Source: Elusimicrobiota bacterium
Lineage (GTDB): Bacteria > Elusimicrobiota > Elusimicrobia > Elusimicrobiales > UBA9959
DNA length: 64,000 nt
Assembly: GCA_036574205.1 (NCBI GenBank)
Contig: JAINCQ010000028.1
Span: 103,554-167,553 of the forward strand
Direction of reading: 5' to 3'
The notes below the pieces were generated by a model. It did not search any database, had not been told where the DNA came from, and saw only the letters and a list, made by a program, of their open reading frames with translations. The position numbers and the translations under genes are program-made. Shown here one piece after another: positions 2,656 to 46,852 of the stretch. Position 1 is the stretch's first letter; each line of letters begins with the position of its first letter.

Positions 2656-3930
<1,275 letters not shown>

Positions 3931-32790: not shown

Positions 32791-33681
32791 ATGTCTTTTG
32801 AGAATTTAGTTGAGGAGTTTTCATCTTATATATTGCTTGAAAAAAACCTATCTAAAAACACCAAACTTTCATATACCCGCGATATAAAAATGTTTCTTGA
32901 TTACTGCGACAAAAAAGGTGTTGATTTTTTTAACATAAAGCCAGATGTTTTAGAAAAATATCTTTTTTCACTTAAAGAGAGCGGATATAAGCTTTCAAGT
33001 ATTTTTCGCAAAGTTGAATCTATAAGGGCATTTTACAAATTTCTTTTAATAACAGATAAGATAAAAGAAAATCCTCTGGCTCATTTTAGACCTCCGCGCC
33101 TTGAAAAGAAACTTCCTGAGTTCTTATCTAATAATGATATTCAAAAAATTTTTTCACATTTTTCAGGTGAGAAATTCAATCTTTTAAGAACCTTTGCTGC
33201 TATAGATCTTTTGTACTCAAGTGGTATAAGGGTAAGTGAGCTTGCTGACCTTGTGATTGAAGGGGTTAATTTGTCTCAGTTATGGATAAGGGTTAAAGGG
33301 AAAGGTGGCAAAGAGAGGATAGTTCCTATAAACGAAAATACAGCAAATCTTTTAAAACTATATATCTCTGAAAGAGAGTTAAAGTTTTCATCAAAGGAAA
33401 CCGACTCAAATCTTTTTCTCAATAAATCTGGGAAAAAAATGAGTCGTATTCAAATCTGGAAGGATATAAAAAAAATAGCAAAAGAAGCAGGGATTGAAAA
33501 AAATATTTATCCTCATATATTCCGTCATACATTTGCCACTCATATGCTTTTGGGAGGGGCAGATTTAAGATCTATAGCCGAAATGCTCGGACATTCAAGC
33601 CTTTTAACCACACAGATATACACCCATTTAGACAACTCTGCCTTGAAAGCAATGCATAAAAAATATCACCCGAGAGGATAA
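32791..33681 (+). CDS. xerD: Site-specific tyrosine recombinase XerD/XerC
   Basis: SGIRVSEL, GKGGKER, HIFRHTFATH, LGHSSLLTTQIYTH, C-terminal HPRG. Confidence 0.88.
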   Translation: MSFENLVEEFSSYILLEKNLSKNTKLSYTRDIKMFLDYCDKKGVDFFNIKPDVLEKYLFSLKESGYKLSSIFRKVESIRAFYKFLLITDKIKENPLAHFRPPRLEKKLPEFLSNNDIQKIFSHFSGEKFNLLRTFAAIDLLYSSGIRVSELADLVIEGVNLSQLWIRVKGKGGKERIVPINENTANLLKLYISERELKFSSKETDSNLFLNKSGKKMSRIQIWKDIKKIAKEAGIEKNIYPHIFRHTFATHMLLGGADLRSIAEMLGHSSLLTTQIYTHLDNSALKAMHKKYHPRG

Positions 33682-33965: not shown

Positions 33966-34775
33966 ATGCCTTATATAAATCTCCACACCCATTCTAATTT
34001 CTCAGATGGCGTTTTAACACCGAAAGAGGTTATAAATTTTGCATTTCAAAAAGGTGTTCATTATTTTTCTTTAACAGATCATGATACGGTAAATGGGATT
34101 CTGGCTCTTTCTGATTCTGATATCAAGGGGATTAAATTTATCAAAGGTATAGAGATAAGCAGTTGTGAGCATGATTATCTTCATATTCTTGGATATAATA
34201 TAGATATAAAGAATAAAAGTTTTCTTTCTGATATAGCGGAATATCGCAGAAGAAGGATATCAAGGGTTGTTGATATTATAAAAAAGCTTAATGATGTAGG
34301 TATAGATATAAAATTTGAGGATCTTGAATTTAAAGAATCTTCAACTGTTGGAAGACCGCATATAGCCGATGCTCTGGTTAAAAAGGGTTATGGCAAAACG
34401 AGGACAGAGGTTTTTTATAAATATCTTGTTGAAGGATGCCATGCGTATGTTAAACCGAGAGGTCCGAGATTAGAGGAAGCTATAAAGACGATAAAAAATG
34501 CTGGTGGAGTCGCCGTCCTTGCTCATCCATCCACAATTGAAGGAAGTTTAAATGTGGAGGAGGTGATTAAATCCGGTTTTGACGGCATAGAGGCTTTTTA
34601 TCCGACGCATACTAATAACAAAGTAAAGAAATATCTTGGTATAGCCGCAAAATATAACCTTATCGTTACAGCTGGAACAGATTTTCATGGTCCAAAGACT
34701 GATAAAAATATTATGGATAAATTTGAATTTGATTTATCAAAACTTTTGAATATAGATAGAATTATTAATGTATGA
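33966..34775 (+). CDS. PHP-domain phosphoesterase (TrpH/YciV-like)
   Basis: LHTHSNFSDG, LTDHDT, GRPHIA, LAHP, GTDFHG. Confidence 0.92.
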   Translation: MPYINLHTHSNFSDGVLTPKEVINFAFQKGVHYFSLTDHDTVNGILALSDSDIKGIKFIKGIEISSCEHDYLHILGYNIDIKNKSFLSDIAEYRRRRISRVVDIIKKLNDVGIDIKFEDLEFKESSTVGRPHIADALVKKGYGKTRTEVFYKYLVEGCHAYVKPRGPRLEEAIKTIKNAGGVAVLAHPSTIEGSLNVEEVIKSGFDGIEAFYPTHTNNKVKKYLGIAAKYNLIVTAGTDFHGPKTDKNIMDKFEFDLSKLLNIDRIINV

Positions 34776-35779
34776 ATAAAGAAATTGAAAAAGAGATTTT
34801 AAGGCTTAAAGAAAAGGGGCTTACAAGGATCTGTGTTGAAAGCGAGATTACAAAAATTGCAGAGCTTACATTTGAAATAAATAAACTTAAAAAGGAAAAA
34901 AAGGCTGTAATAGCCGCTCATGTATATCAAAGACCTGAGGTAATAATAGGGGTAAGCGATTTTCATGGTGATTCTTTTAAACTTGCAAAGGATTGTGTTA
35001 ATGTTGATGCTGAGATTATAATTTTTTGCGGTGTTAGTTTTATGGCTCAAACTGCCAAGATACTAAATCCCAAAAAGCGTGTTTTTATACCTGATACTGG
35101 TGCTGGATGTAGCTTAAGCGAGTCAATAACTGTAGATGATGTTAAAAGACTAAAAAAAGAATATCCCGAAGTTCCTGTTGTAACATACATAAATACAAAT
35201 GCTGATGTAAAAGCTGAAAGCGATGTTGTTGTCACAAGCTCAAATGCAAAAAAGATTTTAGAAAAGCTTTATGAAAAGCATCAAAGAATAATATTTATCC
35301 CTGATAAATTTATGGGGGCAAATCTTGCTAAAGAGCTTGGAAAGGAAGCTGGCAGGGATTTGATTTTATGGAACGGCTCTTGCATAGTCCATGAAAAATT
35401 TAATCCAGATATAATAAAAGAATACAGAAAAAAATATCCAAATATGATGGTAATGGCTCATTCTGAATGTCCTTCTGATATAATAAAACATGTTGATTTT
35501 ATGGGTTCTACATCCCAGATGATTGAACAACTTAGATTAACAGATGCTCAAGCTTATATGCTCATAACCGAATGCGGTCTTGGGGAGCTTGCTACTACTA
35601 TGTTTCCGGAAAAAAAATTTATAGCAATGTGCAGGTTATGCCCCTATATGAAAATGATTACGCTTGAAAATATCTTATTTACCCTTAAAAACCTTCCAAA
35701 AGACAGAGAGATTTTTGTAGATGAGAAAATTGCAGAAAAAGCAAAGGCTTCACTTTACAAAATGTTTGAATTTTCGTAG
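34772..35779 (+). CDS. nadA: Quinolinate synthase A
   Basis: AHVYQ, FCGVSFMA, AGCSL, TYIN, CIVH, HSEC, CPYMK. Confidence 0.95.
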   Translation: MNKEIEKEILRLKEKGLTRICVESEITKIAELTFEINKLKKEKKAVIAAHVYQRPEVIIGVSDFHGDSFKLAKDCVNVDAEIIIFCGVSFMAQTAKILNPKKRVFIPDTGAGCSLSESITVDDVKRLKKEYPEVPVVTYINTNADVKAESDVVVTSSNAKKILEKLYEKHQRIIFIPDKFMGANLAKELGKEAGRDLILWNGSCIVHEKFNPDIIKEYRKKYPNMMVMAHSECPSDIIKHVDFMGSTSQMIEQLRLTDAQAYMLITECGLGELATTMFPEKKFIAMCRLCPYMKMITLENILFTLKNLPKDREIFVDEKIAEKAKASLYKMFEFS

Positions 35780-35804
35780 TTGAAAAGAAGATATTTAAGG
35801 GGGA

Positions 35805-35927
35805 GTTTAGCGGAAAATTTTTGTCAATGAAAAGCTAAATTTTTTGTATAATTTTAATAATAGTTCTCTAAAATATGATGGGATTAGCGGAAAAATGCAT
35901 TTTTTCCCTGAGTAAATCCTGCCCGCA
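35805..35927 (+). promoter_or_regulatory. CRISPR leader, copy 1
   Basis: 35863-35927 is identical (65 bp) to 37767-37831, with looser similarity for another ~55 bp upstream including a TATAAT (35847-35852); abuts the first repeat. Confidence 0.8.
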
Positions 35928-36190
35928 GTCGGAAAACTGGACCCGCTTTAAAGGGGATTGAGACGTCACAAGGACGGCCACCACAATTCGTAAGGTTCTG
36001 CTGTCGGAAAACTGGACCCGCTTTAAAGGGGATTGAGACTCAAGGAACCTCGTCACAAACCTTTTATAATCGTCATACGTCGGAAAACTGGACCCGCTTT
36101 AAAGGGGATTGAGACAAAACTAAATCAACTGCATTCCCATTATATGTTTGGAAGTCGGAAAACTGGACCCGCTTTAAAGGGGATTGCAAC
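35928..36190 (+). CRISPR. CRISPR array 1: four 37-bp repeats GTCGGAAAACTGGACCCGCTTTAAAGGGGATTGAGAC, three spacers (38, 39, 38 bp); last repeat ends ATTGCAAC
   Basis: Repeats at 35928, 36003, 36079 and 36154; unique spacers. Orientation inferred from the leader, the ATTGAGAC 3' end and the degenerate terminal repeat. Confidence 0.97.
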
Positions 36191-36263
36191 TACGTAGGTT
36201 CGAATCCTAAAAAGGAATTGGGAGAATTTAAAACCAGGACTGACCGGGGCGGTCAGTCCGGTT
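36191..36263 (+). repeat. CRISPR trailer, copy 1 (tRNA T-arm-like fragment plus GC hairpin)
   Basis: 73 bp identical to 37944-38016; contains TACGTAGGTTCGAATCCTA and GGACTGACCG-GGG-CGGTCAGTCC (36237-36259). Confidence 0.92.
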
Positions 36264-36294
36264 GAAAGGATTTGAAATAGATATATGTGATATT

Positions 36295-36346
36295 TATCCT
36301 TGACAGAAGGATAAAAATGTTATATTATATCCTTTTTAAAAGGATA
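36295..36346 (+). promoter_or_regulatory. Sigma70 promoter overlapped by two TATCCT-N7-AGGATA palindromes
   Basis: TTGACA 36300-36305, 17-bp spacer, TATTAT 36323-36328; palindromes at 36295-36313 and 36328-36346. Confidence 0.75.
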
Positions 36347-36350
36347 AAAA

Positions 36351-37646
36351 ATGATAAGCAAGCAAATCCTTAAAGAAATAATTATTTCAAATGAAGAATT
36401 TATATTAAATAGAATAACCAATGTTATCCCCCGTAAAGGACTTTTTTTCCCAGAAACATTAAAAAAGGTGGTAATTCTCTATGGGATTCGCCGTAGCGGC
36501 AAAACATATATACTCTATGATTTATTTAAGAAGCATAAAGATACTGCATTATATATAGATTTTGAAGATGAAAGATTGAGTGATTTTAAGATTTCTGATT
36601 TTGAGGTATTGAAGGAAGCATTTTTAGAACTAAAACCTGAAGTATTAAAAAAGAATATAGTTTTTTTATTAGATGAGATTCATAATATAAAAGGCTGGGA
36701 AAAATTTATAAGAAGAATTGTGGAAAAAGATAATTTTAAGGTATTTATAACCGGTTCATCCTCAAGAATGATGCCCAAAGAGATTCAAACATCGCTTAGA
36801 GGAAGATCATGGAGTATTGAGATTACTCCTTTTTCTTTTAAAGAAAGTTTATTTATTAAAAATATTGATGCTGAAAGCAAAGACATTGTTTATGGAAGTG
36901 AGAAATACAGGATAAAAAAATATTTTTCTGATTATCTAAAATGGGGCGGTTTTCCAGAAGTTTTATTGGTTGAGTCGGATTTTGAGAAAAGAAAAATTAT
37001 TAAAGAGTATCTGGATGCAATGTTTTTTAAGGATCTGGTTGAAAGATTTAATATTACTAACATTACTCTTTTATCTGTATTAATGGAAAATCTTTTTTCA
37101 TCTTTTTCATCAAAATTTTCATTAAATTCTTTTTATAAACAGTATAAGCAGAAATTGCCTTTTTCAAAAGACACATTATTTTTGTATTATAAATATTTTC
37201 TTGATAGCATGCTTGTTTTTGAAATAAAAAAGTTTTCTGAATCTCCATATAAGAGAGTCAGAAATCCTGGGAAAATATATGTTGTTGATAGCGGAATTTG
37301 TAGAAAAGTTACCTCTGATGATTTGGGAAGGATAGTGGAAAATGTTGTTTTTCTTGAATTAAGAAAACAGGGAGAGGTTTTCTATTTTGAAGAAGAAAAA
37401 GAGTGCGATTTTATATTGAAGGATTTTAATAATAATTTTATGCCTTATCAGGTAGTTTATGAGCTTAATAGCGACAATGAAGAAAGAGAAATAAAAGGGC
37501 TTGTTGATGCATGTAGGTATTTTTCAAAACGTAATGGAATAATTTTAACATTTGATCAAAGTGGAAGTAGAAAGGTTGATGGAATTAACATTGAGATACT
37601 TCCTGTATGGCAATGGCTATTATTGAATGATAGAGATTATGAGTAG
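36351..37646 (+). CDS. AAA_14 ATPase with C-terminal DUF4143 (restriction-endonuclease-like) domain
   Basis: Walker A GIRRSGKT, Walker B FLLDEIH, ITGSS, LRGR, GGFPE, KIYVVDSG, ENVV, ECDFI...YQV. Confidence 0.9.
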   Translation: MISKQILKEIIISNEEFILNRITNVIPRKGLFFPETLKKVVILYGIRRSGKTYILYDLFKKHKDTALYIDFEDERLSDFKISDFEVLKEAFLELKPEVLKKNIVFLLDEIHNIKGWEKFIRRIVEKDNFKVFITGSSSRMMPKEIQTSLRGRSWSIEITPFSFKESLFIKNIDAESKDIVYGSEKYRIKKYFSDYLKWGGFPEVLLVESDFEKRKIIKEYLDAMFFKDLVERFNITNITLLSVLMENLFSSFSSKFSLNSFYKQYKQKLPFSKDTLFLYYKYFLDSMLVFEIKKFSESPYKRVRNPGKIYVVDSGICRKVTSDDLGRIVENVVFLELRKQGEVFYFEEEKECDFILKDFNNNFMPYQVVYELNSDNEEREIKGLVDACRYFSKRNGIILTFDQSGSRKVDGINIEILPVWQWLLLNDRDYE

Positions 37647-37707
37647 TAAGGGGGGATAAATCTTTGTAAGGTTTTTTTGAGTCTTTTAGTCTTGAGTAGG
37701 TTTTACT

Positions 37708-37831
37708 GGTTAGAAAAAAGAATTTTCTCAATGAAAAACTGAATTTTTGGTATAATTTTAGTAGTGGTTCTCTAAAATATGATGGGATTAGCGGAAAAAT
37801 GCATTTTTTCCCTGAGTAAATCCTGCCCGCA
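37708..37831 (+). promoter_or_regulatory. CRISPR leader, copy 2
   Basis: Near-duplicate of leader 1; contains TGGTATAAT (extended -10 like). Confidence 0.8.
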
Positions 37832-37943
37832 GTCGGAAAACTGGACCCGCTTTAAAGGGGATTGAGACTAAGTTAGTATCCATCTTTCATCTCCTTTTTT
37901 TAAAATGTCGGAAAACTGGACCCGCTTTAAAGGGGATTGCAAC
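37832..37943 (+). CRISPR. CRISPR mini-array 2: two repeats, one 38-bp spacer; last repeat ends ATTGCAAC
   Basis: Repeats at 37832-37868 and 37907-37943, identical to the array 1 consensus and terminal repeats; spacer TAAGTTAGTATCCATCTTTCATCTCCTTTTTTTAAAAT. Confidence 0.93.
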
Positions 37944-38016
37944 TACGTAGGTTCGAATCCTAAAAAGGAATTGGGAGAATTTAAAACCAGGACTGACCGG
38001 GGCGGTCAGTCCGGTT
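37944..38016 (+). repeat. CRISPR trailer, copy 2
   Basis: Identical to 36191-36263; identity stops right after the hairpin (…GTCCGGTT). Confidence 0.92.
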
Positions 38017-38129: not shown

Positions 38130-39104
38130 TTAATTTTCGTAGTTGATTTCTGAAATTATTTTTTTTGCTTCAGTTATGCTTTTGGCTTTCATAAATTTGG
38201 CTCTTGTCATTGCAGCATTAGGAAAGCCACTTAACCATAGCCCGGCAAGCCTTCGTGATTTTATAAGAGCATCCCTTTCTCCAAAGATTTGTTCTGATAT
38301 TTCAAGATAGCGAATAAAAGTTGATATTTTTTTTGAAAGACTGACTTGTGTTTTTTCTTTTTTTAAAAGAAATTCTTTTATATCAGAAAATATAAAGGGA
38401 TTTGAAATTGCAGCCCTTGCTATAGATATTGCATCACATCCAGTTTTTTCAAACATTTCAATTGCTTTTTCAACTGAGTTTATTCCGCCATTTGCTATAA
38501 GGGGTATTTTTATTATGGATTTTATTTTTGCCGCTGTTTCAAAATCAATACTTCCGCTATGATACTGATTTGCAGTTCTTAAATGAATATGTATAACACC
38601 TGCTCCAGCATTTTCAAGGTCTTTTGATAAGGTAATTGCAGTTTTGTGTTTCTCATCTAAGCCAATTCGAATTTTAACTGATACTGGAATTTGAAGTTTT
38701 GATGCAAGTGTTTCAGTTATTTTACATAGTATATGTGGGTTTTTCATCAGTGAAACGCCAGCTCCAGTTTTAATAACCTTTTTAACAGGACATCCAGCAT
38801 TTATTTCTATCATATCTGCATCATTTTCCACACAGAGATTTGCTGCTTCAAGCATTGTGATTTCATCGCTTCCAAATAGCTGGATGGCTATTGGTTTGTC
38901 ATCTCTAATTTTTATAGCCTGTAAGGATTTTTTATTTCTATGTGAAAGCGCTTTTGCTGAAACCATTTCTGAAATTATAAAATCGCATCCATTTTCAAGA
39001 AGTATTTTTCTAAAAGGATAGTTTGTAATTTCAGCCATTGGAGCTAAAAATAGGTTTCCAGTTTTAAGTTTGCCTATGTTTATGGATTTTAATAACATTT
39101 TCAA
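38130..39104 (-). CDS. dusB: tRNA-dihydrouridine synthase
   Basis: LAPMA, IQLFG, INAGCP, VSVKIRIG, IANGGI. Confidence 0.9.
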   Translation of the reverse strand: MKMLLKSINIGKLKTGNLFLAPMAEITNYPFRKILLENGCDFIISEMVSAKALSHRNKKSLQAIKIRDDKPIAIQLFGSDEITMLEAANLCVENDADMIEINAGCPVKKVIKTGAGVSLMKNPHILCKITETLASKLQIPVSVKIRIGLDEKHKTAITLSKDLENAGAGVIHIHLRTANQYHSGSIDFETAAKIKSIIKIPLIANGGINSVEKAIEMFEKTGCDAISIARAAISNPFIFSDIKEFLLKKEKTQVSLSKKISTFIRYLEISEQIFGERDALIKSRRLAGLWLSGFPNAAMTRAKFMKAKSITEAKKIISEINYEN

Positions 39105-39844
39105 AATTGAATCAAATAGTTTCCATCGTGTGAGAGAGTGAAGTCTTTTAAATCTCTTTTTTCAATAAGCCTTATCTCTGATTTTGGGGCGTTTATTTTT
39201 TTAAGAACTGATAGTTGATATTCAAATGCTGCTGCTTCTATATTATAAAGATCGTCAAATTTTTTAAACTCTTTTCCAAAAGGATTTGCAAATCTCATGT
39301 CTATTTTGTTTTTACCAGGTGGGGGGATGTCTTTTTTGTCTTTTTGTTTTTTCGTTATTAGATAATATCCATGCCATCCCTGATGTGCTAAAATTGATGC
39401 CAGAAAGGTAAGTGAGGAGTTTAGATATTTATCCTGTGATATTTCAATAACAGGTTTTTCTCCATCAAAGATAAAGCCTGTTCTGTTTGACTGCCTTATT
39501 TCAAATATATATCTTCTTATCATAGTAAAACTATTTTCTTTATCATATAGCCATAAAAGCCTTAATGAATCTTTTATTTTGGATTTAAAATCTTCTTCTC
39601 CAGATATTATAAGCGCTGATGAGTATGTTTTGTCTGTAAAGTTACTCTTATCAGAATTGTTGGAAAAATTATCCTCATAGTTTATCTCTAAATCTTTTTT
39701 TTGAGCATCTTTTTTGTGAAACTCAAGTTCTTTTTTTGATTTTAAATCAATAAGCGAAATATTACTTTTATATATTTTGTATAACACTCTAGCGCCAAAA
39801 ATTAGAAGTGGCAAAACTCCAAAAAACAGTGCCTTTTTATTCAT
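39101..39844 (-). CDS. Hypothetical membrane-anchored protein with degenerate zincin-like motif (HQGWH)
   Basis: N-terminal TM segment; LASILAHQGWH...EAAAF. Confidence 0.65.
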   Translation of the reverse strand: MNKKALFFGVLPLLIFGARVLYKIYKSNISLIDLKSKKELEFHKKDAQKKDLEINYEDNFSNNSDKSNFTDKTYSSALIISGEEDFKSKIKDSLRLLWLYDKENSFTMIRRYIFEIRQSNRTGFIFDGEKPVIEISQDKYLNSSLTFLASILAHQGWHGYYLITKKQKDKKDIPPPGKNKIDMRFANPFGKEFKKFDDLYNIEAAAFEYQLSVLKKINAPKSEIRLIEKRDLKDFTLSHDGNYLIQF

Positions 39845-40241
39845 TATAAGCTTTTAGATATGACTTATAAAAAGCATCCAATTCTTTGGAAGGATCTTCA
39901 AATTCTATTATGTGTTTTTTACATCCTCTCCTTGAGCATATCTGAACCTGTCCACCATCTTTTAAGTCAAAGGCTACCATCTGGGCATTACATATATCAC
40001 ATTTTCTTGTGCTTTTTAAATCTGCATCACAATGTGGGCATCTAAATCCTGCAATTTTTCCGCGAGGGACTTCTATCCCGCTTTCTATGTTATAACTTCC
40101 GTATAATGAGCTAAGATAAAGCATTGATTTTTTACCGGCATATGTAAGTTTTACTGCGATTGCTGGCTTTTTATCTATAAGTTTCTTTTTATCAATAAGG
40201 GTCTTACCACAATGCGGACATTTTACATTAACGGTTATCAT
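39837..40241 (-). CDS. Cys-rich zinc-ribbon protein
   Basis: CPHC, CPHC, CDIC, CSRRGCKKH; AGGAG RBS. Confidence 0.75.
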   Translation of the reverse strand: MITVNVKCPHCGKTLIDKKKLIDKKPAIAVKLTYAGKKSMLYLSSLYGSYNIESGIEVPRGKIAGFRCPHCDADLKSTRKCDICNAQMVAFDLKDGGQVQICSRRGCKKHIIEFEDPSKELDAFYKSYLKAYNE

Positions 40242-40359: not shown

Positions 40360-43300
40360 TTATTTTTTTGTTGGTTTAAACACAAAGTTTTTTATTTTGT
40401 TTTCGAAATTGGGAAAGTTATCAAACCAGTATTGCTGATATTCTTTTAAAACAGATGCAATCCCTTTCCTGGATTTAAGGAGTAATTTTACGTTTATAAT
40501 GAGGTCATTATATAAAAAATCTATACTTTGCTTTTGTCCATTATTTTTATATTCAAATATATTAGAAAAACCATCTATTTTTCGATATCCATCTGCGTAT
40601 TCAGTCCCTTTTGGATCAATAAAGAGAATCAGGTATTGGTTATTTTTTTGTGCCCAGAAGATAAAGTCTGGCTTAAAATTTGTTATTTTATTTTCTTTAG
40701 GATTGTAATAAGGAATAAATACTTCGTCCAGCGTTTGATCAAGTTTTGAAAACATCCACCAGTCAAACTGAGTAAATACATTATCCTGTTTAGAAAGATA
40801 TTCTTCAAGTTCCTTAATAAATTTTACCTCACTATCAACATTAATAATATGATTAAGGTAGTTAATTTTTTCTGTCTCTGAAACTATTACTGGCAGATAG
40901 TAATGGTTTGCTAAATACTTGATTTTAATCATCTGATTTTCAATTTTATAGTTCTCTGCTTCTTCAAACGATTTTAATTCTTTATCGTATTCTTGTCTTC
41001 TGCCTTCTCTAAATAGTTTATCAAGTTTTTTTTCATATTCAGGTTTATTTTTTATAGTTTCGATTTTTCTTTTTATCTCTTCATACTTATTATTATCGTT
41101 AATCTTTATCTTTTTGAAATGTACAATTTCATTCTCTAATTTTTTAAACTTATCAAACTTTTTACTTTTAAGACTAAAATAATCAAAGATTCTTGTAATA
41201 ATCAATTCTGGTTCAAAAAACAAATTACTTTCATTAAAATCATAGTATTTATCTTTATCATTTAAAAAACTTATTTTTACTTTCTTTAAAACCTCTAAAT
41301 TACAATCATATTTTACTAAAGCTATCTTATCCCCAATATGATTAAAATATTTAGAGGTTAACTCAAAATCGTTTTTGTTAATAGGATATTTTATTAAATT
41401 ATCTTCTTGTGCTAAAATTATCTCGTCAGTTTTATAAACTGGTATTAAAAGAAGATGCTTTTGCACTTCGGGATTTAAAATAAATAAATCACCCAAACTT
41501 TTATCTTGTTTTTCTGCTTTTAGTATTGCAATAGTTTCTTTTAAATTAGTTGCATTTGTTCCAAAAATAAATAGGCTTTCAATTGGAAAAATCAGATTTT
41601 TTATTTTTTCAAATAACTCCTCGTTAATAATTTTGGCGTTAAGTAAATTTTGAAGTCGTCTTTTTTGGTATTTTTGCGGCTCTATCCTGATCCCTCTACC
41701 TATTGATTGAAGAATAAATTTTTTTGCATCACGTTCAACACCGATATTAATAAACAAAATCAGGTTTGGTCGGTTAGAATCCCAACCTTCATAGAAAGAA
41801 CGAGAACCCATTAAAATGTTTATATCAGAATCATCAGTATTGATTGCCTTAAAGTAGCTTTCGTTTTCAAAACTCTCGTTTATTTCATATCCTTTCAGTT
41901 TGTTTTTAAGCCAGCCAGAAATATCGCCGATCTTAATCAAGGCAAAAGGTTTATCAGATGTCATAAGTCTAAAAATAAGTTCTTGCCGATTTCCAGGGAT
42001 TTTTAAAACTTCAATCTTACCCGGAGTTTTAGCGTTCAAAACACATTTTAAAATGTCGTCATAATCCAATTCTGAAACTAAATCGGAGTTAATGACACAT
42101 TCCAAATCTTCAAATACGAGTTTAGCGTTGTTGTTAAATTCCTGGATAATTTCCTCTTTTGCCTTTTTAATCAAATCGGGTTTAACTTCATTTTTCGCAA
42201 CTTTCTCTAATTCTCTAAAAAATATTTCTAAATCAGATTGTTCTACATCTACGGAATTAACCAGTGTTAAAAGTAATGGGTGGTGATATAGCGAATTATT
42301 CACTTCTCTGATTTTTTCAAAATATTTATTGATATAAGCCAAAAGTAATAAGGTCTTTAAAACAATTTTTTGCTTTTCAAGTGGCGAGAAATCAGTTGAG
42401 TTACGAAACGCGCTGATTTCGGCAGAAGATACATAAATATGCTTACCATATCCTTCTTCAACAAACTTTGAAAGATTGAAATTGAAAGCGCAAGTCGCAA
42501 AATCCCATGGATCTGTGAATGTAGCAGAGAAATTAAATAAAAAACCATTTCTTGAAAGTATTGAATATAGAATCTGCCTTTTGCTGTCTTCTTTATCACC
42601 TTTATGTGCTTCATCTAAAAGGATATACCAATTGCCATCATCGTCATAATTTTTAAAATTAACAATTTTTTCTTTATGTTCGTCAGAAATTAAATCAGAA
42701 CGGTAATAAAAAACAGTAACCTCATTTTTGGCAAACGGTAAAGCATTTTCGCGCTTGACATTCTCATAATCTCTCAGATTTTTAAGATTTATTTTTATGC
42801 CTGCCTGCGTGCCGCCCGCGGGCAGTTTAAAATTGAAGTTATTAAACTCATCAACATGATTTTTAAATTGTTCCAGAAGATCATCGCGATGCGTCAGAAA
42901 AATAATATCCTTCGCCGGTAATTCTTTTTCAGCTATGAGTTTCCCTAAAAGTTCAATTAGCTTAACAATAATAAGAGTCTTACCTGATCCAGTTGCCATC
43001 CAGAAACTCATACGGTTGATAAAATATGCAAAAGAAATCTTTGAATCTATTACAGGATAATCCTTATCGTATTCTTTTAAATATTTTGTTATCTTTTTGC
43101 CTTCTTTCTTTTTCAAGTCATAATCAAAATTTTCTTCTAAACCATTAAGTTTATAATGCTCAAATAAAGCTACTTTATCAGCATTTTTTTCTTTGAAATA
43201 CAGGTGTAATGTCTTCAATGCGTTTTTCAAAGCCTCTTGCTGAAAATCAAAAAGTGTTTTATCTTTTGAAAATCGGGCTAAACCTGTCTGTGCCGTGCTT

Positions 43301-43389
43301 GTTGCAGCAGGTAGGGCAAAAACTTGCCACTTTACAGGTAAATTTTCAAAAGGAATTTCATCTATAATATTTTGTAAGTATAGTTTCAT
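40360..43389 (-). CDS. res: Type III restriction endonuclease (Res) subunit
   Basis: MATGSGKT, LDEAH, FSAT, EGWD, QSIGRGIR helicase motifs and C-terminal PDF...IDPKG nuclease motif. Confidence 0.93.
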   Translation of the reverse strand: MKLYLQNIIDEIPFENLPVKWQVFALPAATSTAQTGLARFSKDKTLFDFQQEALKNALKTLHLYFKEKNADKVALFEHYKLNGLEENFDYDLKKKEGKKITKYLKEYDKDYPVIDSKISFAYFINRMSFWMATGSGKTLIIVKLIELLGKLIAEKELPAKDIIFLTHRDDLLEQFKNHVDEFNNFNFKLPAGGTQAGIKINLKNLRDYENVKRENALPFAKNEVTVFYYRSDLISDEHKEKIVNFKNYDDDGNWYILLDEAHKGDKEDSKRQILYSILSRNGFLFNFSATFTDPWDFATCAFNFNLSKFVEEGYGKHIYVSSAEISAFRNSTDFSPLEKQKIVLKTLLLLAYINKYFEKIREVNNSLYHHPLLLTLVNSVDVEQSDLEIFFRELEKVAKNEVKPDLIKKAKEEIIQEFNNNAKLVFEDLECVINSDLVSELDYDDILKCVLNAKTPGKIEVLKIPGNRQELIFRLMTSDKPFALIKIGDISGWLKNKLKGYEINESFENESYFKAINTDDSDINILMGSRSFYEGWDSNRPNLILFINIGVERDAKKFILQSIGRGIRIEPQKYQKRRLQNLLNAKIINEELFEKIKNLIFPIESLFIFGTNATNLKETIAILKAEKQDKSLGDLFILNPEVQKHLLLIPVYKTDEIILAQEDNLIKYPINKNDFELTSKYFNHIGDKIALVKYDCNLEVLKKVKISFLNDKDKYYDFNESNLFFEPELIITRIFDYFSLKSKKFDKFKKLENEIVHFKKIKINDNNKYEEIKRKIETIKNKPEYEKKLDKLFREGRRQEYDKELKSFEEAENYKIENQMIKIKYLANHYYLPVIVSETEKINYLNHIINVDSEVKFIKELEEYLSKQDNVFTQFDWWMFSKLDQTLDEVFIPYYNPKENKITNFKPDFIFWAQKNNQYLILFIDPKGTEYADGYRKIDGFSNIFEYKNNGQKQSIDFLYNDLIINVKLLLKSRKGIASVLKEYQQYWFDNFPNFENKIKNFVFKPTKK
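42799..42825. repeat. In-frame GC-rich palindromic insertion in res
   Basis: GCCTGCCTGCGTGCCGCCCGCGGGCAG in an AT-rich gene; encodes LPAGGTQAG. Confidence 0.7.
43283..43315. repeat. In-frame GC-rich palindromic insertion in res
   Basis: CCTGTCTGTGCCGTGCTTGTTGCAGCAGGTAGG (33 bp, ends pair with G-U wobbles); encodes LPAATSTAQTG. Confidence 0.7.
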
Positions 43390-44375
43390 GATATTAAAAG
43401 GTTCGTAACAATTTTAATTAAAGTATCTTTATCCTCCGATTTACTTATTGCTATTAAAAGTACTAAAGCAGTTAAAGTATTATCGTTTATTTTCCTTTCT
43501 CCTGTTTTGAGATATAAATATTTATTTTTTTCCAAAAAGTAGATAAAAAGAAAAGATGCTATGCGTTTATTACCATCAATAAAGGGATGATCTTTAATAA
43601 TAAAGTACAAAAGATGGGCATCTTTTTCTTCTAATGATGGATATAATTCTTTTTTGCCGAAAGTTTGATAGATATTTTCAATTATTCCTTTAAATTTTTC
43701 GTCATTTTCCTGTCCAAATAATTTGCCAGCTTCTTTTTTAGAAATGAGGTCTTTTTTTATTTCTTCAATAATTTTTTTAGCATCTTCATATGTTAAAACA
43801 TATTTATCTTGTTCTTTTTTAACCAGATTTAATTTTTCTTTATCATACTGTTCAAGCAATGTAAAAGTTTTAGAGTAACTCGCAAGCAGGTTTAAAATTT
43901 CCTGCTCTTGTCCACTAAGCAGTTTGTGTCTTGATTTTTCTTGCAGAAAAAAAATAGTTTGCTGCAATTCTTTTAATTCATTCTGTACCTCTAAAAGGCG
44001 TTTTTCGTTAACAGCATAACCCTTTAATAAATAATTTTTTAAGATTTTAGTTGCCCATCGCCTGAAATGTATGGCTCTGGCTGAGTTTACTCTATATCCA
44101 ACAGCAAGAATGACATCCAGATTATAAAAATTTACCGGTTTATCTGACCCAGCAATGTGCATTTTTTGCACATTGCTTTTTTTATCCACCTCTTTATCCG
44201 CCAAAATTTTATTAATATGCTTTGTTATAACCGATCGTTCTTTGTTAAAAAGTCTGGCGATCTCCTCCTGACAAAGCCACACAGTTTCTTTTTCAAAACG
44301 GACTTCAAATTGAATCTCATTTTGTTGGGATTTATAAAAAACTATTTCACCTTTTCTGCAAGTTTTATTTATCAT
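43386..44375 (-). CDS. RhuM-domain / Fic-Doc family protein
   Basis: ETVWL...YNLDVILAVGYRVNS...FRRWAT (RhuM) plus HPFIDGNKR (Fic/Doc). Confidence 0.92.
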   Translation of the reverse strand: MINKTCRKGEIVFYKSQQNEIQFEVRFEKETVWLCQEEIARLFNKERSVITKHINKILADKEVDKKSNVQKMHIAGSDKPVNFYNLDVILAVGYRVNSARAIHFRRWATKILKNYLLKGYAVNEKRLLEVQNELKELQQTIFFLQEKSRHKLLSGQEQEILNLLASYSKTFTLLEQYDKEKLNLVKKEQDKYVLTYEDAKKIIEEIKKDLISKKEAGKLFGQENDEKFKGIIENIYQTFGKKELYPSLEEKDAHLLYFIIKDHPFIDGNKRIASFLFIYFLEKNKYLYLKTGERKINDNTLTALVLLIAISKSEDKDTLIKIVTNLLIS

Positions 44376-44387
44376 AAATCTTTATTT

Positions 44388-46852
44388 TTATTCCCACCAG
44401 ATTAATGGTTTAATAAGTTTATAATCTAAATCTTTTATATTTATTTTTGTCTCATCTTCAAACTCCACTTTGTCATTAGTGATTTTCTTAATCCATTTAC
44501 CGGTTAGATTAGATAGAGTTTCAGCGATGTCTATATTGGGATAGAGCTTTGATAAATCTACTTTGACTCGATTATTTTTATAATCAATCTCTAATGCTTT
44601 AAGCATTTTTTCATCTTTCATAAAGACATATTCCTGATACGGACTTTTTCCTGGCATATCAAACAAATCCCCATCTTCATATTTACAATTTGCTAAAGTT
44701 TCCTCATATTGTTCAAGTTCGTAATATTTAAAAAAGCCGCCACCTTGATATTCTTTTATTTCTTTTGAAATACCGGATTTATCATAGGCTAAAACTTTTT
44801 TCATTCTTGGTAAAACTACACTATAAAAGTGTCCTCCCATTTCTATGCCAATCCATTTCCTGCCAAGCTTGTGTGCTACTGCTGTTGTAGTGCCAGAGCC
44901 AAGGAAAAAATCCATAACTAAATCACTTTCATTAGAAGTAGATTCTATAACACGCTTTAGAAGGATTTCGGAGTTTTCGGTTGAAAAACTCCATCCAAAT
45001 GAATAACTACCTATATCTGTCCAGTTAGAATCTACAGGGGTTAATTTTGACTCCAAATATTGAGGTAAGCCCTTTTGTTTATTTCCTAAGACATCAATAT
45101 ATTCATATGCTGTATAAATCCTAATTCTTTTTTCTTTATTAAGTTGATCAAATTTTGTTTGAGAAAACCTCCAATGATGACCTTTTGGTGCAATAAATTT
45201 TATTTTCCCTAATTCAATTATGTTGGCATCCTTATTTTCTTTTGGAGAAACAGCGTTCACCCATCTTGTTTCTCTTCCTCTTTCTTTGAAAATCATATTA
45301 AAAGTAATTTTTGTATTTCTTCCATAAAAGTAAAGCAAATCGTAGGCTGGGTTAAATCGTTCTGGAACATTTGTCCCCTGATAATTAACTTTTCGAAGAG
45401 ATATCTCATTCCTAAAATTCTCCTCTCCAAATATCTCATCCATCAGACATCTTACAATCCAATTTCCATTATAATCACACCGGACAAAAATACTTCCTTT
45501 TTCATTAAGCCAATTTTTAGCAAGTCGCAATCTATTTTCAAGTAGTGTAGCCCAGTTAGCATCTTTGTAATTTGTGCGGTATAAAAACTGGTCAGAGGAA
45601 TCTAAATTAAACGGCGGATCTATATAAATTGTCTGGACTTTTTCTTTGAATTTAGACAGGATTGTATTTAGTGCTTGATAGTTTTCGCTTTTTATAAGCC
45701 AGCCGTCTAGAGATTTATCTAAATCTTCAAATTGATTTAGAATCTCAAGTTCTATGCTTTAAAATATTTTGTATCGATAGGTAAATGCTTGTATTTTTCA
45801 GATAAGTATTTGCCTGTTAAATTACTTTCAAAAATATCTTCCATATTAAAATTTTTATCAATAATTCCAAGTTCCAGCCATTCTTTTATTTGTTCTTTTA
45901 TATTCTCGTGTTTAAAAATTTTTTCAATAAGTTCTAGATTCTTTATCCTGTCCAGCGTAATCACATAGTTTGAGTTTTTAACAAACTTCGGCTTGTTCCA
46001 TATTTTTACCAATTCATCTTCAAACTGTGAAATAAAGTCAATGATTTTAAATGCAATGTCTTTTAAGATTTGCAACTCATTAACTCTTTCTGCGCTCCAT
46101 TCTTTTGCCCCTTCCCAGAAATACTGATAACTCCATAGTTTAAACTGCTCTTGCAAAAATGCTTTAGCGTTTTTATTAATAAAAAAATCAACTTCACTTT
46201 GCTTTTCAAAAATTTTAAAGGCTTGCTCTAATTGTTCTTCTGTAATCACAATACCTTTTTTCTTTACAGCTTTTAATATCTCGTCCTGTTTTGTTTTTGT
46301 CCCTTTTTCTGAGTATTGAACACTAAAAACAATCGTTCTATCTTCCTTAACCTCATCTAATTCAAAAATCAGTGATCGCTTTTCATTGGCTTTTTTGTTT
46401 TCTATATTTGAAGCATTAAAATAAAACTTAAATCCATTAATCTCTACTGGTAAACTTCTAAAAATCCTGTCAGTTTTGATATAATAGAGCATCTGAGTTT
46501 TCCAAAAAAGAATAACATTTTTTTCATCAGTATAAACTTTTTCATATATATTATTATGAAACGGTGTTGAATTAAAATAGATTGAACCACTTTCTGTGAA
46601 ATATCGGTTAAAAAAAGAATAGAGTTTGTCAAAAAGCTCGTCTTTAAATTTTGAGTGTCTGTCTGTGCGTGGATCATCTCCAGAGGAATGTCTTTTTAGC
46701 GCATCTTCAATATCTTTTTGAAGAATACTTTCAATTTTGCGATAGTAATTTGATTTTATTTTCATCAAATTAATAAAACCACCCTTACCTTCAATATTAG
46801 CACCAATAAACACATTCCGTAGTGCTTCGTAAAATTTTTGTTCTTTTGTCAT
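44388..46852 (-). pseudogene. mod: Type III m6A DNA methyltransferase (Mod) split by a -1 frameshift (about 821 aa if repaired)
   Basis: ORF 45752-46852 ends KYFKA*; the -1 frame continues IELEILNQ...IYIDPPFN (motif IV) into ORF 44388-45530 with DFFLGSGTT (motif I). Break at about 45756. Confidence 0.88.
46658..46686. repeat. Degenerate in-frame GC-rich insertion in mod
   Basis: TCTGTCTGTGCGTGGATCATCTCCAGAGG begins like the two res insertions; lies in HSSGDDPRTDRHS. Confidence 0.5.

Follow-up and report, generated by a model that had tools for sequence, protein, structure and literature searches.

Orphan CRISPR mini-arrays on both sides of a PDC-S01 ATPase gene between nadA and dusB in an Elusimicrobiota genome

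Whether a gene enclosed by two CRISPR (clustered regularly interspaced short palindromic repeat) arrays works with the arrays, or has only come to lie between them, is the question raised by a 2.35-kb block of DNA which separates nadA from dusB in an Elusimicrobiota bacterium (assembly GCA_036574205.1, contig JAINCQ010000028.1). Two short arrays reside in the block in direct orientation, and the sole long open reading frame (ORF) between them (36351-37646, plus strand) codes for a 431-aa protein with AAA_14 and DUF4143 domains, a member of the PDC-S01 family of candidate defence proteins. The block was analyzed within a stretch of 64,000 nt, referred to as the window (G000:C19:103554-167553; positions are those of the window unless a contig or locus is given). 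The genome (G000) has a size of 1.85 Mb, is assembled in 43 contigs, and is 95.3% complete. A first-pass annotation, made from the letters of the sequence, had regarded the block as the best candidate in the window for an undescribed system. What had been observed was confirmed, including the single AAA_14/DUF4143 gene between the arrays; what had been concluded was supported in part. The components are of known kinds, orphan arrays and a PDC-S01 gene, and their arrangement is a curiosity which provides no evidence for a new system. We think it probable, if by no means certain, that decaying orphan arrays of class 1 type have been duplicated, or homogenised, around a PDC-S01 cassette which is mobile on its own.

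The duplicated leader-array-trailer unit

Self-comparison of the sequence confirmed that a unit made up of leader, array and trailer occurs twice in direct orientation, as first annotated. Mini-array 1 (35928-36190) contains four repeats and three spacers (38, 39 and 38 nt), mini-array 2 (37832-37943) two repeats and one spacer (38 nt); both are read on the plus strand, as are their leaders and trailers, and the four spacers are all distinct. The 37-nt repeat GTCGGAAAACTGGACCCGCTTTAAAGGGGATTGAGAC starts at 35928, 36003 and 36079 in array 1, where the three copies are identical, and at 37832 in array 2. Each array is closed by the same variant repeat (starts at 36154 and 37907), which departs from the full repeat at 2 of the last 5 bases, ending in ATTGCAAC instead of ATTGAGAC. 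Array 1, whose 4 repeats (37 nt each) are separated by unique spacers of nearly equal length, fits the definition of a CRISPR array. Array 2 has 2 repeats and 1 spacer only, but its repeat, trailer and leader (the latter except for the distal part, see below) are identical to those of array 1. In both units, an AT-rich leader with a plausible promoter precedes the array, and the last repeat is degenerate.

The leaders (35814-35927 and 37718-37831) carry a TATAAT box ~75 nt 5' of the first repeat. In leader 1, which is AT-rich, the box is found at 35847-35852, along with an imperfect palindrome, GGAAAAATGCATTTTTTCC, and the junction CTGCCCGCA, which abuts the first repeat; leader 2 features an extended -10 box, TGGTATAAT. 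The leader promoter is not called by a simple promoter scan, since the spacing to the -35 region is 20 nt. Leader and first repeat, taken together (35814-35964 vs. 37718-37868), are 94% identical over 151 nt. Every mismatch falls in the distal ~50 nt of the leader, which are ~82% identical, the proximal 65 nt and the first repeat being 100% identical in the two units. Terminal repeat and trailer (36154-36263 vs. 37907-38016) are 100% identical over 110 nt, 73 of which make up the trailer (36191-36263 and 37944-38016). The identity of the 65 leader-proximal nt and of the 110-nt terminal stretch, both pointed out at the outset, hence holds. The GC content is ~26-38% throughout, and does not set the block apart as foreign. 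The view that the ATPase gene is a "giant spacer", i.e. a kilobase-sized spacer of a single array, was rejected, the insert opening with a full trailer and closing with a full leader.

The doubt that the duplication is an artefact of assembly, raised by the first-pass annotation itself, is countered by contig depth in one public hot-spring run (metagenome, Logan contigs), which may be the source sample. The contig composed exclusively of shared sequence, from leader end and trailer, reaches a depth of 30.4; the depths of the unique flanks and of the ATPase gene are 16.5, 15.9 and 17.2. The twofold depth of the shared parts indicates two copies in one genome, not two strain variants of one array, and supports a true duplication. 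Moreover, overlaps at contig ends span 127 nt, more than either of the identical stretches (110 nt and ~102 nt), so that a k=127 assembly graph should resolve both copies.

The trailers carry a hairpin, GGACTGACCGGGGCGGTCAGTCC, at 36237-36259 and 37990-38012, respectively. The hairpin is terminator-like on the minus strand; the copy in trailer 2 follows the dusB stop codon at a distance of 118 nt, downstream of it, and is terminator-like on the dusB strand. About 25 copies are dispersed in the genome (e.g. C33:2461, C17:4354, C5:7233 and C7:37008), many of them inside a ~135-nt module, in mosaic with other short repeats, and near several contig ends. The hairpin was found in none of the five relatives tested, both same-genus genomes included, and may represent a family similar to repetitive extragenic palindromes (REP) or miniature inverted-repeat transposable elements (MITE), expanded in this lineage. 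Because both trailers carry this lineage-specific hairpin within identical flanks, the hairpin was probably gained once, and the unit was then duplicated locally. The interpretation of the trailer as a decayed spacer followed by a repeat was discarded: the repeat-like part corresponds to the dispersed hairpin and a TTTAAAACC flank, found also at C7:36998.

The first 19 nt of the trailer (36191-36209 and 37944-37962; 20 nt with the last base of the repeat) are identical to the T-arm region of tRNA-Tyr(GTA) at C5:238-256 (blastn-short E = 3.6e-4), and the next bases depart from the tRNA. This tRNA-Tyr-like 19-mer may be an old spacer, a relic of an attachment (att) site, or a chance match. In folding analyses, the repeat alone had a z-score of -0.08, terminal repeat and trailer one of -2.4, mainly due to the hairpin; neither showed a tRNA-like or other notable structure.

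Arrays without cognate cas genes

No cas gene resides in the 64-kb window, as had been noted. Genome-wide profile searches, each of which detected the control genomes, identified a single Cas1 (C19:92774-93460), located outside the window, ~10 kb upstream of it and 46 kb from the arrays. The gene is part of a complete type II-C locus (G000:C19:91349-96629, ~7-12 kb before the window start; L039) made up of cas9, cas1 and cas2. Cas9 spans 1034 aa, and features HNH and RuvC_III domains. The array of this locus contains 12 copies of a 36-nt repeat (GTTTTGACGCAAC...), unrelated to the 37-nt repeat, and 30-nt spacers. An anti-repeat-like stretch between this array and cas2 is a putative trans-activating CRISPR RNA (tracrRNA). 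The searches gave no match to Cas6_C, RAMP, Cas5d and DevR/Cas7 in the 95.3%-complete genome, no second Cas1 in the assembly and, for cas3_core, a helicase match below cut-off only. The first-pass annotation had ascribed the gain of spacers to Cas1-Cas2 encoded elsewhere; this was not supported, the only such pair being that of the type II-C locus, with its unrelated repeat and 30-nt spacers as against the 37-nt repeat and 38-39-nt spacers of the block. Since no type I/III locus is present in the assembly, the arrays are orphans in it, and not ordinary satellites of such a distant locus, the outcome that had been set against the initial proposal. Cognate cas genes were not found in the genome, a completeness of 95.3% leaving their absence unproven.

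A genome search for further copies of the 37-nt repeat, as first proposed, returned the 6 known sites only, none at contig ends. The repeat was not detected in 400 other genomes of the phylum (up to 2 mismatches allowed), nor in metagenome and viral contigs scanned for the exact pattern, and unit 1 had no BLAST match in plasmid and phage collections. All six repeats match the Rfam model CRISPR-DR8, below the gathering score (24.8 and 21.4 vs. 39 bits; E = 0.022); no other family was found by the Rfam scan, and none of 60 relatives matches the CRISPR-DR8 model. The repeat family (5' GTCG..., 3' ...ATTGAGAC) is foreign to this lineage. The repeat looks like a class 1 repeat, processed by Cas6 or Cas5d. 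Its 3' end, ATTGAGAC, resembles the 8-nt handle of the Cas6 type, and CRISPR RNAs (crRNAs), if processed, would carry an 8-nt AUUGAGAC handle, starting 8 nt before each spacer.

A single related array was found on a metagenome contig (L038) by means of a degenerate two-end pattern. It is made up of three 36-nt repeats and 2 spacers (L038:1985-2250, minus strand), has a terminator at its end, and lies between a UvrD/Rep-like helicase gene on one side and an anthranilate synthase gene on the other. No cas genes were found within 2 kb of it on this 22-kb contig, which is rich in GCCGTCTGAA-like uptake-sequence motifs. The L038 leader and the leaders described here have in common the junction CTGCnnGCA/GTCGG (the slash marking the repeat start) and an A-run/T-run motif, which speaks for a genuine array family whose leader core is conserved; the degenerate terminal repeat, typical of arrays, argues for the same. 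Two bacteria of very different kinds carry cas-less mini-arrays of one and the same repeat and leader family.

No target was found for the four spacers. Their 22-nt 5' seeds have no exact match in viral contigs, exact-seed searches being insensitive; spacers 1-3, contained in the unit-1 stretch, have no match in plasmids and phages, and no spacer has a self-match of at least 20 nt in its own genome. A 25/28 match of spacer 4 to DNA located 5' of an ATPase homologue in a relative (E = 0.006) looks like a T-rich chance similarity. Solitary mini-arrays of viruses and other mobile elements feature 1-3 spacers and a leader, have no cas genes nearby, and need the Cas proteins of the host. The arrays of the block are similar to them in spacer number, leader and lack of neighbouring cas genes, but are chromosomal and set between housekeeping genes, with no virus, plasmid or other mobile-element genes in the block, no cognate Cas in the host and no spacer match.

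Orphan arrays are described as common, short and possibly degrading in passages of an earlier report (PMC7145637). Like the orphan chromosomal arrays considered there, those of the block are short, have a leader and a degenerate terminal repeat, lack cognate cas genes, and carry a repeat unlike that of the resident locus. Unlike them, the whole unit is present twice, in direct orientation and 1.75 kb apart, with one unrelated gene in between, and the parts adjacent to the repeats are identical, the spacers entirely different. The situation is reminiscent of orphan type I-F arrays in E. coli, in which an orphan array of one subtype resides in a genome carrying another subtype; anti-cas spacers are reported for those arrays (PMC7145637), whereas the four spacers analyzed here have no target found.

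The arrays are unlikely, though not to a negligible degree, to be functional and used in trans by a class 1 system encoded in the ~5% of the genome missing from the assembly, or by a co-resident plasmid or virus. They would then be two paralogous arrays with a conserved leader core and independent gain of spacers, the ATPase gene merely lying between them. Such use would account for the perfect conservation, as under selection, of the leader-proximal 65 nt, repeats and trailer next to a diverged distal leader, and for four distinct spacers of uniform length; a -10 box is present in both leaders, completeness of the genome is no more than 95.3%, and remote arrays frequently correspond to a Cas system encoded in trans, according to part of the same report (PMC7145637). 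It is contradicted by the failure to find Cas6_C, RAMP, Cas5d, DevR/Cas7 or a second Cas1 in the assembly, by the lack of more repeat copies, contig ends included, and by the absence of the repeat family from the 400 phylum genomes and the 60 relatives; in addition, the identical 73-nt trailer has no known CRISPR role, half of it being the hairpin dispersed genome-wide. In loci in which a cas operon is set between two arrays, paralogous leaders agree close to the first repeat and differ in the distal part. The block is similar in having two arrays with the same repeat close together, and leaders conserved and diverged in the same way, but a PDC-S01 cassette is found in place of the cas operon, and the trailers too are duplicated, and carry a repeat specific to this genome among those tested.

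The PDC-S01 gene and its homologues

The product of the gene enclosed by the arrays matches Pfam AAA_14 (1.1e-36, 126 bits) and DUF4143 (1.3e-14, 54.7 bits), both above the cut-offs, and, nearly at full length (residues 37-424), the PADLOC PDC-S01 profile PDLC04787 (2.1e-94). Walker A (G45..K51), Walker B (D108 E109), and E351-x-D353 and Q367 of the nuclease domain are intact, and 57 out of 57 columns invariant among 10 homologues are retained. These matches support the initial prediction of a protein combining an ATPase and a PD-(D/E)xK-type domain. The claim of an undescribed system did not survive, the protein belonging to a catalogued and very common candidate (2e-94; PMC12988326). Passages of this 2026 survey rank PDC-S01 fourth among the most common defence systems, candidates included, across prokaryotes, with 29,494 bacterial and 9,986 archaeal counts, describe it as an ATPase fused to a PD-(D/E)xK-superfamily domain, and as a putative, stand-alone single-gene defence candidate whose validation is pending, and mention "multiple transfers across domains" (PMC12988326). 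In its full-length match, conserved residues, and patchy, multi-copy spread across phyla, the protein is no different from PADLOC PDC-S01; only its position between two arrays is unusual. It would act alone, as a candidate defence protein targeting nucleic acids in a nucleoside triphosphate-dependent manner.

The closest homologues found share 60-70% aa identity with the protein, and come from records labelled Planctomycetia, Clostridia, Omnitrophota and Elusimicrobiales. The closest two are 73-74% identical in DNA sequence, and this homology starts at ~36284-36294, in the promoter of the gene, and ends at ~37618-37627, just short of the stop codon. The promoter/operator region (36284-36350, plus strand) includes 57 nt common to these two homologues, which hold the best promoter match of the region, TTGACA-17-TATTAT. 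The -35 box falls within a palindrome (TCCTTGACAGAAGGA; TCCTTGACAnAAGGA), and a second one, TCCTT-N6-AAGGA, is found directly 5' of the start codon. The pair of palindromes was observed in 5/5 upstream regions inspected, from homologues labelled as different phyla (window 36291-36350; L034 ~2943-3000; L035 573-634; L036 ~2936-2992; L009 ~1500-1555). It is a candidate autoregulatory operator, and provides a testable site of autoregulation for an uncharacterised family.

Homologues (E <= 1e-30) reside in 27 of 200 other genomes of the order, at up to 7 copies per genome, and were not found at this threshold in the two same-genus genomes. PDC-S01 is expanded in genomes G017 and G026, with 7 matches each, some copies featuring in-frame stops, and four copies reside within ~9 kb on a single contig of the latter (G026:C82:1856-10811). 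CRISPR-like arrays were searched for in the flanks of 37 homologue loci, 4 from genomes of other species, 4 from family relatives and 29 from the order search; the last two sets overlap, and the number of distinct places is lower than 37. No array was found at any of the 37 loci by the scan, which detected the locus of the window as a positive control; two weak matches correspond to ordinary short tandem repeats. Lack of arrays at these loci, and homology bounded at promoter and stop codon, argue that the gene travels without arrays, and the cassette is independent of them. No array-flanked homologue was thus found in other genomes within the flanks scanned, and the initial alternatives for the ATPase, CRISPR-linked accessory or effector on one hand, cargo of a mobile CRISPR cassette on the other, are both left without support.

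It is doubtful, in particular, that the ATPase gene and one mini-array make up a ~1.75-kb mobile cassette, a circle of which crossed once into a resident array of the same family, giving rise to the direct duplication, and may be excised again. The geometry is that of a single-crossover product, with a trailer-to-trailer period of 1753 nt and 20 + 71 nt of extra DNA; the distal leaders differ, as if derived from two sources, and the gene family is clearly horizontally mobile. However, no second instance was encountered, arrays being missing at all 37 homologue loci, and the repeat was found neither in the exact-pattern scans of metagenome and viral contigs nor by BLAST in plasmids and phages. 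Both trailers carry a hairpin absent from 5 relatives, which argues for a local history of both units, and the unit is devoid of recombinase and replication genes. A 175-nt contig joining the leader straight to the terminal repeat was considered as an empty array or excision product, and rejected. Because every 31-mer of its path occurs in the two-unit genome, it may result from the collapse of a k=31 graph, is uninformative on excision, and provides no evidence for it. Quite improbable is a wider role in which the CRISPR mini-array provides a minimal gene cassette with a portable site of recombination, so that a gene would be spread along with "memory" spacers. We give equally little credit to the corresponding scheme, by which the ~1.75-kb circle would enter and leave arrays of the same family, the trailer and the tRNA-Tyr-like 19-mer being part of the machinery.

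A role of the AAA_14-DUF4143 protein as effector or accessory, guided by crRNA or dependent on arrays, which would make the block a new cas-less CRISPR-linked system, is very improbable. Only adjacency, shared orientation and the predicted ATPase and nuclease-like domains speak for it; against it stand the 0/37 homologue loci with arrays, a family of tens of thousands of members presented as a stand-alone single-gene candidate in the survey passages (PMC12988326), the conserved promoter and operators which the gene has of its own, independent of arrays, and the lack of a repeat-processing enzyme among the genes found in the genome. Moreover, of the papers returned when full texts were searched for DUF4143 or COG1373 together with CRISPR, none names either family in title or abstract.

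Origin and setting of the block

The reading which we favour, orphan arrays duplicated or homogenised around a mobile PDC-S01 cassette, takes the block as two unrelated things joined by local rearrangement. The arrays would stem from a horizontally acquired, class 1-style repeat family, each with a plausible leader promoter. As no Cas6-type enzyme, class 1 effector or cognate adaptation module was found, they would be transcribed at most, and represent immunologically inert remnants, which could now change only by repeat-repeat recombination, with loss of spacers, and by gene conversion. The PDC-S01 gene would be self-contained and horizontally mobile, with a predicted sigma-70 promoter of its own amid paired palindromes. 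The unit would have been duplicated within the lineage, either by segmental duplication, or by one crossover with a DNA circle or sister copy that carried an array. Recombination seeded in the identical repeats may have kept the adjacent 65 nt and 110 nt identical, the distal leader drifting to ~82%. The four spacers could be derived from a four-spacer ancestor by one repeat-repeat deletion per copy, with no acquisition needed.

Some of the data weigh against this reading. If the ~18% divergence of the distal leaders reflects neutral drift, the 0 differences over ~212 nt of leader end, first repeat, terminal repeat and trailer call for either gene conversion or purifying selection, and selection would mean that arrays and trailer are still functional. 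The DNA between the arrays amounts to little more than the ATPase cassette, with 20 nt and 71 nt in addition, and such tightness fits a 1.75-kb single-crossover unit. In an assembly of 43 contigs, 95.3% complete, class 1 cas genes could sit on a missing piece, a plasmid or a virus. The homologue flanks scanned mostly spanned ±1.5 kb (±3 kb at four loci), and contig ends truncated some of them, so that remoter arrays would have been missed. Finally, a 15-nt direct repeat, AATTTTCGTAGTTGA, bounds the block exactly at both gene ends, and hints at a site-specific event for which this reading does not account. Two matches to it were found in the window vs. 0.04 expected. Copy 1 (35769-35783, plus strand) overlaps the nadA stop codon, copy 2 (38132-38146, plus strand) encodes the last dusB residues on the opposite strand; the last codons of both genes are hence supplied by the repeat, and differ from those of the same-genus genomes. 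The repeat may mark a site-specific or illegitimate recombination event.

CRISPR-associated transposons carry a homing guide, made up of an atypical repeat and a tRNA-matching segment, along with Tn7-like genes and a Cas effector, and are inserted beside the target; in CreTA/CreR modules, a degenerate repeat-spacer is found in or beside a cas operon, and its pseudo-spacer partly matches a promoter which is repressed by the Cas effector. The atypical last repeat followed by 19 nt identical to the T-arm of the cell's own tRNA-Tyr, a segment perfectly conserved in both units, is reminiscent of either, but has very little chance of being a dedicated crRNA-like guide, homing or regulatory (CreA/CreR-type): no class 1 or Cas12k-type effector was detected (Tn7-like genes were not searched for genome-wide), no cas operon is adjacent, the ATPase gene is the only gene of the block, which is not beside a tRNA gene, tRNA-Tyr residing on another contig, the related mini-array L038 lacks such a segment, and, T-arms being conserved among tRNAs, the piece may be a relic of tRNA-targeting integration or an old spacer.

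The genes flanking the block had been correctly named as nadA (34772-35779, plus strand; Pfam NadA 5e-105) and dusB (38130-39104, minus strand; Pfam Dus 2e-70). Comparison of the nadA-dusB interval in relatives, suggested by the first-pass annotation, revealed that both same-genus genomes lack the block. The gene order is nadA > p134 > p247 > dusB > glycerate kinase in one of them; in the other (G002), the kinase gene is inverted, and moved to between nadA and p134. In the genome analyzed here the order is nadA > (block) < dusB < p247 < p134 < (type III Res, RhuM/Fic, Mod, 366-aa ORF) > glycerate kinase, the p134-p247-dusB operon (38130-40241) being inverted with respect to G001 (L020/L031) and G002 (L021/L032). 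The four genes next to p134 form a genome-specific islet (40360-46852, minus strand), absent at this place in both same-genus genomes, which codes for a 1009-aa type III restriction Res protein, a RhuM/Fic-DOC protein, an N6/N4 DNA methylase, and a 366-aa ORF product with no Pfam match. The inverted operon and the two genome-specific inserts of defence type point to a small, rearranging defence islet, and the nadA-dusB/kinase interval represents a hot spot of rearrangement. A tyrosine recombinase of XerC/XerD type (Phage_integrase and SAM_1 domains; 32791-33681) is encoded upstream of the block, at a distance of 2 kb. Rather than belonging to a mobile element, it seems to be a housekeeping enzyme, as its C-terminal part is 81% identical to a protein encoded at the same place in a same-genus genome.

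Were a cassette of gene and mini-array to prove real, it would represent a new way of gene movement via CRISPR arrays. As we read the locus, it calls for caution in taking adjacency as function, since now and then a gene from a family reported to count tens of thousands will come to lie next to an array. It would also indicate that orphan arrays persist in the genome, reshaped by duplication, by homogenisation of the parts adjacent to the repeats and by repeat-repeat trimming, within a rearranging defence islet.

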